Shown piece after piece: positions 1-64,000 of a stretch of 64,000 nt of DNA. The stretch comes from Paraspadella gotoi (Eukaryota > Animalia > Chaetognatha), in assembly GCA_051294375.1 (NCBI GenBank), contig CM119265.1, positions 16,622,005-16,686,004 of the forward strand. The letters run 5' to 3'. The position numbers were made by a program, and so were the translations under genes. The first letter of the stretch is position 1; the number at the start of each line of letters is the position of its first letter. The notes below the pieces were generated by a model that had not been told where the DNA came from, did no database searches, and worked only from the letters and a program-made list of their open reading frames with translations.

Positions 1-1651
1 TACGGATATCGGCTGGGCTGATTGAGACGAGACCAAAGCCCAGTCCTAAACGATATCCGCTTGCCACGATGATAAAGATGAAGACTACAAAAACGGCGAC
101 TGGCCATAGATGAATCGGGATGTCTCTGAACACGCCTAAAAACCATAGATGTATTTTTAAAAAAAAAAGACTGAAGTAAAGATTTTTAGATATTAAAATA
201 ATATTAAAATATATTACCAGATATGAACTTTCCCAAGGCGTTTCCAAGAAATTCCAACGGCTCAAACATCATTTGATTAATGGTGAAAACGAGGACTCGA
301 ATCGGAGTAACCTCCGTAATAACATCGACCTGATAGGCATGGTGGAAGCGGCGACAGGCGTCTTGCTCTGGGTCGCCGAACTGAAAGGGTCTCGCCAAAG
401 ATTTCCAGACGTCAGTGAATACGCTCAAAAAAAAGGAAGAGGAGTCTTCTTCGTTAAAGGAGGAATGGCATTGGGGGGGCAACTTTTGTGAGCGATCGAC
501 AGCCTGATTTACTTGAGCCTGAGGAAAAATGGGAGCAAAGAAAGATTTTAATTTTAGAAGAAAAGTGACTGGTCAACTAAGAACTTACCTTTTGATAAAG
601 GGCCACGCCGTTCCAGGGAAGACTGACGATAAATAGAATGACGTACAATAAAACAAGAAGCTTCAAAGCGTCAGAAAAGCAAAACGAAGAGATGCACAGC
701 CTTCGAAGGAACCAAATGCCTGAAAGCGAATTGTTGGTAATTAGGACCAGCTTTATTTTAGTTCGTTTGGAAATTTAGATTAATGTAGTTGCAAAAAAAT
801 AATAATATTCAAAATTACTCGTATTCTTCAAAAAATTAGAAATATAAAGTTATAGATATAACTTCTAATAGATTTTAAGTTAATTAATAATTAACAATCA
901 CTCGATTAGATTTACCCCAAATCCCAGCGAATATTGGAACTAGCCAAAATAGATTTTGACGATTTTCAAAGAGTGCGGCGTAAGAAGGACGAGAAGAATG
1001 AGTCTCAACATCGTTTTCATCCGTCTCCCAGCGCACCTTAACCATCGCTGCGGAAAAATGCTGCAGCGCCCACAAGTTGTCCCTGCAAGCTCGGTCGTCT
1101 TTCGTTTTCGTCGTTCGCGAAACCACGCGACGCAGAAGGTCGAGATGGACGACCGGGAGACGAATGTCGGCGCGGAGGACGATCGCGTCGGTGTCCTCCG
1201 AATCTAGCCGCCCATCCGACGGAACGACGTCAAGAATCTGTCGCATGAGTTTGTAAAATGTCGAGACGCAGACGAGAGACAGTTGGGATTCGGTTTTGCA
1301 AGTTGAATTGATCGAGACGTTCGCGGAAAATGCGTCGAGGGAGGGAATGGATCCTGGAGCGTCCGGCGCTTCGATCGTGGGTTCTTTCATCGGGGAATGG
1401 TTCACGGACTGCTCTTTGTTCAGACTCTCCTTCGTCGCGTTGGGACAAACGCAAGGCGGGCAGGGGGATTCAGGTTTGGAAGGTTTCATGGTTTTTGTGC
1501 TGCTGTCGTAGTTGAACATGTCTCGATAGTCGACGTAATTCTCAGGCAAATCATCATCAAGGTAATCGACGTTCGATCGTCGATCGCCGAGGCAAACAAT
1601 TAAGTTTAAAAAAATTAGACATATTGAGAGTTTCAAGCCGATCCGAGCCAT
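1..1651 (-). CDS. CLCC1: Chloride channel CLIC-like protein 1 (3' end beyond window); spliced
   Basis: Signal peptide then YVDYRDMFNYDSSTKTMK (cf. CLCC1 WIDPTDMLNYDAASGTMRK); SLPWN TM segment; EPLEFLGNALGKFI...DIP. Exons approx 1651-916, 719-589, 518-218, 135-1 with GT-AG ends. Confidence 0.8.
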
Positions 1652-1845
1652 GACGCTCAATTTCTCTCTAAATATTTAGAGGTAATAATTATATGAAAAC
1701 TTTGATATTAAACCTCATATTTAAAATTAAACATTTAGCAGCTTGAATAGCCACGAAAAAAAAAATAAATAGTAAAATCAGAAATAACGGTTGTGGCATA
1801 GATGTTAATGACACATGGTTCTAATTTGCAGGAAAAAACAAAAAT

Positions 1846-3510
1846 TCAAACACTCATATTAATTAATGCGTCCTTATCAGCCCTTGCGCTCTTCTCGTTC
1901 TCGATGTGATAAAGCACGTCGGCGAGTGCGGCTTCAACGTACGAGAGTTCCACGTTGTCGCTCATTGGCCGCCACGAAGAACGGTCCATGTCTTTCGGGG
2001 CGTGACGGAAGCGCGGCCCAAAATTGGCCTTGACCACAGCGCTGCGATACAAACTGATGGCTGGGTAGTACGTGCCTTTATGAGCATTGTCAAAAGCTTG
2101 GCCCAGGTTCTTGCCGTTGAGGTACCAAGAGATTATCAGTCCCGGATGGGGTTTCAATTTTTTTTCCTCGATCCCCGCGTTGTCTTTCTCCTCATAATAG
2201 AGGTAACTCTTAAACTTGATCAGCGGCTTGTCCTTGTAAGTCGCCGGGAGAACCTCAGGGTAAAACTTAGTAGGCAGCTGGATGTAGCAACCGAGAATGT
2301 CGCCGGCGCCGAACTCTCGTCCGTAACTCTTGCCGTAGCTTTGGTGGAATCGCGTTCCTTTTCGCGAGCGAATCGCGTAGGAAAACTTATCATAACCGCA
2401 GGGAGCCTGCACCTGACCCAGTGCCTGTGACCAGCCGATGCGCGCGTGAGCGCCGTCGGGCAGGTCTAAGATAGTAACTTCAAAGTACCAGTTGCCGCGC
2501 GAGACGCCATGAGTGGCGCGTATCATCGAGTAGCCCTTCTCCCCGGTGACGGTGAGCCGGTCATCGTGAACCTTGAGCTGGTGAGCACGGTCGTTGAGTG
2601 AGAGGCGTACCCTCGGCTCGACAAAGCGTCGGTAGAGGTAACCGGGGATGGGTTTGCCTGCCCATTCGGCAGAGTCCTCGAATTCTTGCCGGTTGGGCGC
2701 GTGGGGGTCAGGCTCGGCCAGAAAGTACCGGTAGCCGTCTTTGTTGAAGGGATGCTCAGTCGGGTACATGGAAGGCGACTTGCCCGGCAACGAGGTGTCT
2801 TGAATCTTGTTCTTTTTCTCCCTAAACTCGCGGTTAGCGTTCTCCGCGGCCTTGCGCTTCACACCGCGTCCCGTCTTCGCCGGCGGGTCGGCCTTTTCCG
2901 CCTTTTCTTGTTTGGGCTCTCTCGGTCCGGCCGAATAGCCGGACGGGTTGAGAAGCGACGACTTAAGTGTATCGTAGTTAGGGCCGATTTTGGCCAAGTT
3001 GCCATTGACCAATCCATACTTGAGGTCGCTTAGGTCCGTCTCGTCAATTGTGAAGACATCGTTGGTCTTGAAAAGCGTCTTGGAGACGGTAGTGTGCCAG
3101 GTGTTCTTCACGCGTCGCGGCGTGGTCGTCAATGCCTCCCAGTGTTTGTCGACGTAAGGGATAATTTCTTTGTCCTTGGAGTACATCTTGCCCTCGGTTC
3201 TGTCTTTGTCCAAAGCCATCAGGTTGGCAATAGCGGTAAAACACATTTGGCCGAAACTGGCCTGCTTTTTGTTGAAACTCTCCTGTCCGGTGGAGCTGCA
3301 GAGTTTGCAGAAGAACTGGTAGTTGGTCATGAAGCAGACGCAGGGGTCCACCGGGCAGGAAACGCAATCCTTGTGGTACCATCGCTGGCAGATACCACAC
3401 TGTAGTTCGACGCTGCCTACAGTGCGTTTTTTGTTGCAATAGCAATCAATAGAGTTGGCTCCCTTGCTGGACGATCCGCCGCTTAACAGGCCGCTCGGTC
3501 CTTCGGCCAT
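1846..3510 (-). CDS. ASH2L: Set1/COMPASS subunit ASH2-like; intronless
   Basis: N-terminal atypical PHD (CYC..ELQCGICQRWYHKDC), winged helix, EHPFNKDGYRY, SPRY domain (LSLNDRAHQLK, GYDKFSY), C-terminal DPY30-binding helix. First ATG at 3510. Confidence 0.96.
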   Translation of the reverse strand: MAEGPSGLLSGGSSSKGANSIDCYCNKKRTVGSVELQCGICQRWYHKDCVSCPVDPCVCFMTNYQFFCKLCSSTGQESFNKKQASFGQMCFTAIANLMALDKDRTEGKMYSKDKEIIPYVDKHWEALTTTPRRVKNTWHTTVSKTLFKTNDVFTIDETDLSDLKYGLVNGNLAKIGPNYDTLKSSLLNPSGYSAGPREPKQEKAEKADPPAKTGRGVKRKAAENANREFREKKNKIQDTSLPGKSPSMYPTEHPFNKDGYRYFLAEPDPHAPNRQEFEDSAEWAGKPIPGYLYRRFVEPRVRLSLNDRAHQLKVHDDRLTVTGEKGYSMIRATHGVSRGNWYFEVTILDLPDGAHARIGWSQALGQVQAPCGYDKFSYAIRSRKGTRFHQSYGKSYGREFGAGDILGCYIQLPTKFYPEVLPATYKDKPLIKFKSYLYYEEKDNAGIEEKKLKPHPGLIISWYLNGKNLGQAFDNAHKGTYYPAISLYRSAVVKANFGPRFRHAPKDMDRSSWRPMSDNVELSYVEAALADVLYHIENEKSARADKDALINMSV

Positions 3511-63722: not shown

Positions 63723-63903
63723 CTGGAATAAGCCCAACTCTGAAATCTTTGATCGAATATCGTATATTGTAAAAAAAGAGTAGATAAATTCCTGGCACAA
63801 TTTGATAATTTAATTTCATGATTAAAAAAAAACGAACCCAAACGCCAAAAAAAGTTTTATAAAACATCACATTTTCAGTCTGTTAAAAGAAAAAAATGGA
63901 GCT

Positions 63904-64000
63904 TCACTTGCAGATGCCGATGACCCCGCAAGCCAGCCTGGCGCCAGCATTCCCTGTAATGAGGCTAAGATCATGGCCTCCTTTGCCAAGATCGTCGACG
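63904..64000 (-). CDS. SOD1: Cu/Zn superoxide dismutase, C-terminal end
   Basis: [35 protein letters not shown]. Confidence 0.93.

Follow-up and report, generated by a model that had tools for sequence, protein, structure and literature searches.

Animal operons are reported as small, with maxima of seven to nine genes, or 14 by distance alone. Those of Caenorhabditis elegans hold two to eight genes and those of Macrostomum at most nine (PMC8629364), the maxima given for Schistosoma japonicum and Ciona are nine (PMC12582326) and six to seven (PMC7986045), and 14 genes were predicted for Pristionchus at a 3.5-kb cut-off (PMC4138322); no further operon-size maximum appears in the accessible text of PMC11067885, PMC2776167 or PMC7668243. 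Among chaetognaths, the operons of Paraspadella gotoi were defined as gene models less than 250 bp apart, and the longest of them joins nine ribosomal, ubiquitin and proteasome genes (PMC12460157). Within the RPS14-PCNA operon of Spadella cephaloptera, 3 nt separate the poly(A) site from the acceptor, and further clustered genes of the same orientation may represent further operons (PMC2481426). Here we analyse a stretch of P. gotoi contig CM119265.1 (positions 16,622,005 to 16,686,004; 64,000 nt, hereafter the window), which carries an array of 18 gene models on the minus strand. On balance, we favour the reading that this array is a directional tract made up of at least two long operons, with the likely break in a transposon-filled gap between the RRP46 and PWWP genes, and that the operons are likely resolved by spliced-leader (SL) trans-splicing. 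An operon-type, leader-resolved organisation is supported by unpaired acceptor-like sites, by the small number of donors in the gaps, by RNA over all four gaps of one aligned stretch, and by the published chaetognath operons.

The gene models were rebuilt from coordinates, with the first RECQ1 acceptor revised and the MKS1 start moved by a single base, and all 18 are open from start to stop (Table 1). In transcription order they are the SOD1 end, HDAC, MMAA, G6PD, PRA1, MKS1, USP, RPABC4, RRP46, the PWWP protein, RRP9, NSE4, MCM6, an FtsH-like protein, RECQ1, ORF149, ASH2L and a CLCC1-like protein; family support comes from Pfam, and the individual gene names are labels that we presume. They contain 44 introns, 43 GT-AG and one GC-AG. 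The rebuilt models confirm the layout given in an initial annotation of this DNA, with the 18 genes in one direction and the array continuing past both window ends, through the Cu/Zn SOD C-terminus (first) and the CLCC1-like gene (last). They also return all 17 of its stop-to-start gaps unchanged (181, 50, 341, 770, 580, 84, 1019, 170, 4697, 270, 169, 171, 382, 1099, 148, 215 and 194 nt). The median gap is 215 nt, with 9 of the 17 at or below 250 nt, 12 at or below 500 nt and 16 at or below 1100 nt. The further claim that the 18 genes are unrelated holds for the 17 with family support, the remaining one, the orphan ORF149, being a predicted gene only. The array therefore shows what is expected of an SL-resolved animal operon, namely unrelated neighbours that share a strand and are separated by short gaps. 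Pfam searches covered 109 of 186 minus-strand open reading frames (ORFs) of at least 55 aa and 150 of 184 on the plus strand, where they gave one real match, a C2H2 zinc-finger exon, and one noise match at E = 0.01; the only antisense gene found is this zinc finger, nested in FtsH intron 4.

Acceptor-like sites were scored with a matrix derived from the 44 cis acceptors, taking the best AG within 100 nt 5' of each ATG. The median is 6.7 bits for the pre-ATG acceptors (n = 17), 6.5 bits for the cis acceptors themselves (44, leave-one-out) and 3.9 bits for 2000 random non-coding windows. The comparison with random windows gives p = 1.8e-6, which is optimistic since the windows overlap, and that with the antisense strand of the same windows gives p = 0.009; 13 of the 17 exceed the random 75th percentile. 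Unpaired 3' splice acceptors of this kind sit 4-90 nt before the downstream start codons and are weak at PWWP, PRA1 and CLCC1. In transcription order, the 17 acceptor-like sites lie at 63792 or 63740, 62419, 61012, 58609, 55025, 53221, 50122, 49672, 44008, 42002, 40216, 38262, 30892, 12318 or 12294, 4184, 3532, and 1668 or 1742. The PWWP site, which follows the largest gap, is the weakest of all 17 (3.1 bits) and lies in a leader region of 41% GC. With the acceptors picked by hand, a donor as strong as the lower quartile of cis donors is absent in 14 of the 17 gaps and present in three. The sense strand has T over A by 0.11-0.44 in 14 of 17 gaps, and the skew extends about 1.2 kb into the 4697-nt gap. 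The gaps of 50 and 84 nt would be too short for a promoter plus untranslated regions (UTRs), and upstream ATGs number 56 in 3.5 kb of gaps. Canonical poly(A) hexamers are not enriched in the gaps (9 against 11 +/- 3 in shuffles; at least one in 6 of 15 gaps); one-mismatch hexamers (79 against 61 +/- 7) lack a positional peak and are not used as evidence. No Ur-like shared element was found in the array gaps and no SL gene in the window, where Rfam gave no match and the published leader end motif has two one-mismatch matches, with 0.9 expected.

Expression evidence comes from assembled contigs of one run (X1) of one study, which is not on record as RNA. Run X1 contains 0.93 of the sampled words of 59300-63900, a stretch in which coding words make up 0.85. 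Its contigs were aligned over a single 7.5-kb stretch, 48300-55800 (PRA1 to RRP46), where they differ from the window by two letters and one 2-nt gap. They skip five of five introns at GT-AG, which identifies them as cDNA. Spliced contigs cover all four gaps of this stretch, with cover extending from PRA1 past RRP46; this is consistent with the gap-spanning transcripts of the initial annotation but also with overlap or read-through, as contigs do not display single molecules. Two of the gaps lie within single contigs, one crossing MKS1-USP with its flanks and one crossing RPABC4-RRP46; at PRA1-MKS1 the contigs abut with one base between them, and at USP-RPABC4 both end in a short T-rich repeat skipped by the tool. 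No cis joint occurs in the X1 contigs at any of these four gaps' acceptor-like sites, one of which has a strong donor 236 nt upstream of it. The leader is absent among the 18 of 27 loose contig ends shown, which counts neither way, since assembled contigs cannot show 5' ends. Genomic DNA contamination is an unlikely source of the gap cover: assemblers presumably drop low-depth paths, which would help such an explanation, but no cover is seen over the five introns, and at its own intron the PRA1 contig shows no break.

Within the 1019-nt USP-RPABC4 gap, two non-coding blocks (Table 1) are conserved in RNA contigs of other organisms, designated B and C, and in organism C they occur on an RPABC4 contig. 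Judged by this conservation, the gap is functional RNA whose link to RPABC4 is kept in at least one relative (organism C); synteny in relatives was seen for one contig of that organism. The blocks may belong to the USP 3' UTR or act as a processing signal ahead of the RPABC4 acceptor. Folding of block 50139-50241 is no better than that of shuffles (z 0.56), and Rfam over 47900-51100, which covers both blocks, gave no match at E <= 5.

Under a reading of several long operons, polymerase II would start at few promoters, one of them past the right window end, and produce long precursors, with a leader spliced onto each unpaired acceptor. The T-rich gaps would mostly be 3' UTR of the upstream gene, ending near the next acceptor as in the Spadella RPS14-PCNA operon. 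The two largest gaps had been described as mostly transposon-like insertions, and repeat elements indeed occupy 3104 nt (66%) of the 4697-nt RRP46-PWWP gap and 658 nt (60%) of the 1099-nt FtsH-RECQ1 gap, with 1593 and 441 nt remaining; after element removal, the gaps range over 50-1593 nt. RRP46-PWWP is the likeliest break because about 1,600 nt remains there after removing two elements and because its acceptor is the weakest of the 17. The upstream block would then hold at least nine genes and the downstream block up to nine, each with an open end, and the 250-bp rule would cut such blocks at long UTRs and inserted elements. The original proposal of one polycistronic unit of unusual size, or a few, is thus partly supported, namely in the operon-type organisation, with a few units more likely than one; a single 18-gene unit is not shown, the RRP46-PWWP junction being weak.

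Several points weigh against long operons. Under random orientation, 17 same-strand junctions have p = 7.6e-6. An independent-junction model built from the 2,151 candidate operons of P. gotoi and the 5,061 genes that they hold (PMC12460157) sets the same-strand probability at 0.57 and leads us to expect about 0.6 runs of 18 per 22,000-gene genome. Given this expectation, and since the window was chosen for the co-directional array itself, co-direction alone proves little, and the argument is carried by the short gaps, the acceptors and the RNA. Only 6 of the 17 pre-ATG acceptors exceed the random 90th percentile, the depletion of upstream ATGs after the acceptor has p = 0.025 at hand-picked sites but p = 0.10 at objectively chosen ones, and no shared intercistronic motif or k-mer was found upstream of the acceptors. 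RNA cover is limited to 4 of the 17 gaps and to contigs of one run, and a two-gene contig is not a single transcript, since overlapping UTRs or read-through look alike. About half of P. gotoi genes are trans-spliced and only 18% lie in operons (PMC12460157), and trans-spliced single genes carry the same acceptor as operon genes. The break at RRP46-PWWP is itself a candidate boundary only. That the array works like a leader-resolved operon array is thus partly supported, while operon membership is not proven. Some of these points would suit an array of mostly single-gene units, each trans-spliced from its own short outron and co-oriented by housekeeping clustering, with a few two-gene operons and with gap cover produced by overlapping UTRs and read-through. 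In P. gotoi, genes trans-spliced outside operons are more numerous than operon genes (PMC12460157), eight of the 17 gaps exceed 250 nt, and the chance expectation for runs of 18 also speaks for such units. We nevertheless consider this arrangement improbable: four consecutive gaps lie under spliced RNA, the 50- and 84-nt gaps would place promoters in upstream coding sequence, and canonical poly(A) hexamers show no enrichment.

It is also conceivable, though we doubt it, that the whole array is a single polycistronic unit, with at least 18 genes and a length of more than 64 kb, a trypanosome-like cluster in an animal, in which transposons landed in intercistronic regions and introns without breaking transcription. 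The host genes show no strand switch and both ends are open, the gaps shrink to at most 1593 nt once elements are removed, and the T skew enters the large gap. Operon gaps widened by repeat insertion are known from Macrostomum (PMC8629364), and in Spadella BAC 35A21 the named host genes, 14 of 14, are on the plus strand over 120 kb (our count from Table S5 of PMC2481426). Against a single unit stand the weak PWWP acceptor with its GC content, the antisense gene inside the array, the smaller operon maxima reported elsewhere, and the location of the RNA cover outside the large gap. An array without any trans-splicing, whether expressed as mature multi-gene mRNAs or with 5' UTR cis-introns or one shared cis-spliced leader exon at the acceptor-like sites, appears highly improbable. 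The contigs do run straight across four acceptor-like sites, as it would predict, but X1 has no cis joint there although five cis-introns are visible, a strong donor is missing from most gaps, and the many upstream ATGs in the gaps would hinder downstream translation. We therefore retain a tract of two or more leader-resolved operons as the preferred reading.

Gene structure varies widely along the array, with no coding introns in HDAC, MMAA, G6PD, MKS1 and ASH2L as opposed to 9-12 in MCM6, FtsH and RECQ1. The first RECQ1 intron (12133-12021) is the GC-AG one, an 11-nt micro-exon is predicted at 42950-42940 in the PWWP gene, and the in-frame 75-nt USP intron (52751-52825) is detectable only via RNA. 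The FtsH/YME1L-like protein has what we take to be degenerate Walker A and B motifs and an intact HExxH protease motif, and may be an ATPase-impaired paralogue. The gene call for ORF149 rests on codon bias, the weakest of the 18, and on an acceptor 8 nt 5' of its ATG. A homologue search for ORF149 returned no relatives (the sole listed match had no aligned stretch), and its best Pfam E-value is 0.13. It has a basic N-terminus and one hydrophobic segment (4175-3726, minus strand), and is possibly a small mitochondrial membrane protein. In the gap between ORF149 and ASH2L (3503-3729), the ASH2L 5' region is duplicated in tandem in degenerate form (81% over 74 nt); the first copy has an extra upstream ATG and lacks an acceptor.

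No transposase was found in the repeat elements of the two large gaps, so these look non-autonomous. The two inverted-repeat elements (44095-46589 and 12557-13214) have similar five-base ends, and the 4-nt target duplication of the larger presumably points to Chapaev-type DNA transposons. Upstream of the zinc-finger gene (about 18190-18700) lie a CT microsatellite and a GC-rich region, unlike the array gaps. The CpG ratio is 1.27 in coding sequence, which is not depleted, and 0.78 in repeats, a pattern that is compatible with, and not diagnostic of, the restriction of methylation to transposons in P. gotoi (PMC12460157).

Table 1 Genes, elements and conserved blocks of the window, genes in transcription order.
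Feature	Coordinates	Strand	Evidence
Cu/Zn superoxide dismutase, last codons, runs off window	63904..64000	-	Pfam Sod_Cu E 1e-4
Histone deacetylase (HDAC8-like, as we presume), intronless, 426 aa	62442..63722	-	Pfam Hist_deacetyl
MMAA/MeaB GTPase, intronless, 373 aa, 50 nt past HDAC stop	61270..62391	-	Pfam MeaB
G6PD, intronless, 524 aa	59354..60928	-	Pfam and homologues
PRA1 family protein, 2 introns, 207 aa	55531..58583	-	Pfam PRA1; last exon in RNA contig 3
B9-domain ciliary protein (MKS1-like), intronless, 549 aa	53301..54950	-	Pfam B9-C2; RNA contig 2
Ubiquitin-specific protease (USP), 657 aa, 2 RNA-confirmed introns	51086..53216	-	Pfam UCH; RNA joints
RNA polymerase subunit, presumably RPABC4/POLR2K (named from its sequence, without Pfam scan), 1 RNA-confirmed intron	49787..50066	-	Gene model and RNA contig
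Exosome subunit (RRP46-like), 2 RNA-confirmed introns	48692..49616	-	Pfam RNase_PH; RNA
Protein with two weak PWWP domains, 489 aa	42262..43994	-	Pfam PWWP E 0.003-0.004
WD40 protein (taken to be RRP9/U3-55K), 515 aa	40359..41991	-	Pfam WD40
NSE4, 368 aa	38393..40189	-	Pfam Nse4_C
MCM6, 12 introns, 847 aa	31194..38221	-	Pfam MCM, MCM6_C
FtsH/YME1L-like M41 protease, 9 introns (two >6 kb), 872 aa	13354..30811	-	Pfam AAA, Peptidase_M41
RecQ helicase (RECQ1-like), 9 introns, first GC-AG, 686 aa	4324..12254	-	Pfam DEAD, Helicase_C, RecQ_Zn_bind, RQC
Orphan ORF149, 149 aa, predicted gene only	3726..4175	-	Codon bias and acceptor
ASH2L, intronless, 554 aa	1846..3510	-	Pfam and homologues
CLCC1/MCLC-like membrane protein, runs off window	1..1651	-	Pfam MCLC E 5e-4
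Dispersed repeat	46815..47423	.	Second copy 32297-32852 in MCM6 intron, 86% self-match
Foldback element, 1.06-kb arms 97% complementary, 4-nt target duplication, 100 nt before PWWP start	44095..46589	.	
658-nt element, 33-nt terminal inverted repeats, in 1099-nt gap	12557..13214	.	
C2H2 zinc-finger gene, antisense and nested within FtsH intron 4; 5' part predicted by eye	18762..21879	+	Pfam zf-C2H2, exon 20755-21876
Conserved non-coding block 1 in 1019-nt gap	50514..50540	-	26/27 letters alike in organism C RNA contig, collinear with RPABC4
Conserved non-coding block 2, ends 17 nt before RPABC4 acceptor-like site	50139..50241	-	RNA contigs of organisms B and C

The protein relatives of two array genes fit a spiralian-like phylum, as far as sequence comparison goes. 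G6PD has a few close relatives at 74-78% and then other bilaterians at 61-67%, and ASH2L a few at 84-88% and then other bilaterians at 45-54%, molluscs and annelids first. These close relatives include no named chaetognath sequence. In a quick G6PD tree of 48 rows, which has no rotifer, tunicate, flatworm or cnidarian rows, the close relatives form a 100% clade whose long stem places it apart from the molluscs, pancrustaceans, echinoderms and vertebrates. A metagenome scan with one of them (P0002) found no clade member among the at least 80 loci listed, the matches lying on universal motifs.

If our preferred reading of two or more operons is correct, the array would match or exceed the nine-gene maximum reported for chaetognaths. 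Together, the 18-gene tract and the 120-kb Spadella tract suggest that distance cut-offs under-call operon size in chaetognaths. A far-reaching version, which we put forward as speculative and rather unlikely, is that chaetognath housekeeping genes are organised in one-way polycistronic tracts, each with at least 18 genes and more than 64 kb long, in which 3' ends form beside the downstream trans-splice site, and that the 250-bp rule splits these tracts through long 3' UTRs and transposons. Should a single promoter drive a tract of this kind, individual genes must be regulated post-transcriptionally, as trypanosome genes are; should the tract consist of ordinary operons in a chain, it would remain a large example for a phylum with known operons. 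The one-promoter question can be tested directly with the genome, Iso-Seq and ATAC data published for P. gotoi. Our literature search, which left most subscription papers outside, returned no report of an animal directional cluster of such size. The words 'strand' and 'orientation' are absent from the main text of PMC12460157, and there is no strand analysis in the accessible text of the F. enflata preprint or, by a term search, of the Spadella atlas preprint.

Compared with known systems, the array resembles the operons of P. gotoi and S. cephaloptera in that unrelated housekeeping genes follow one another head to tail with short gaps; no operon-specific leader has been reported for these operons. 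It differs from the published nine-gene P. gotoi operon in having 18 genes without a strand switch and another gene set. Measured stop to start, 9 of the 17 gaps pass the <250-bp definition; the RNA-covered 580- and 1019-nt gaps might pass once UTRs are counted, and the 4697- and 1099-nt gaps likely fail. The long one-strand tract recalls Spadella BAC 35A21, whose Table S5 has 24 rows, 19 on the plus strand, four on the minus strand (all transposon) and one blank (PMC2481426); the table omits predictions without a SwissProt match, whose strand is not given, and the BAC was picked for holding an operon. Long one-way tracts may thus be a phylum trait of chaetognaths, and the comparison with a trypanosome-style directional cluster, drawn in the initial annotation, gains independent support from the Spadella table, the comparison covering this window and one BAC table. 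As in nematode, tunicate and flatworm operons, same-strand clusters appear to be resolved at unpaired acceptors, and as in Macrostomum the gaps are inflated by repeats; unlike in those groups, the array is longer than each reported maximum and has no Ur-like shared element that we could find. Trypanosomatid directional gene clusters are long one-way arrays of unrelated genes with pyrimidine-rich acceptors and no enrichment of canonical poly(A) hexamers. The array shares all of these features, and differs from such clusters in that its genes have cis-introns and enclose a nested antisense gene.

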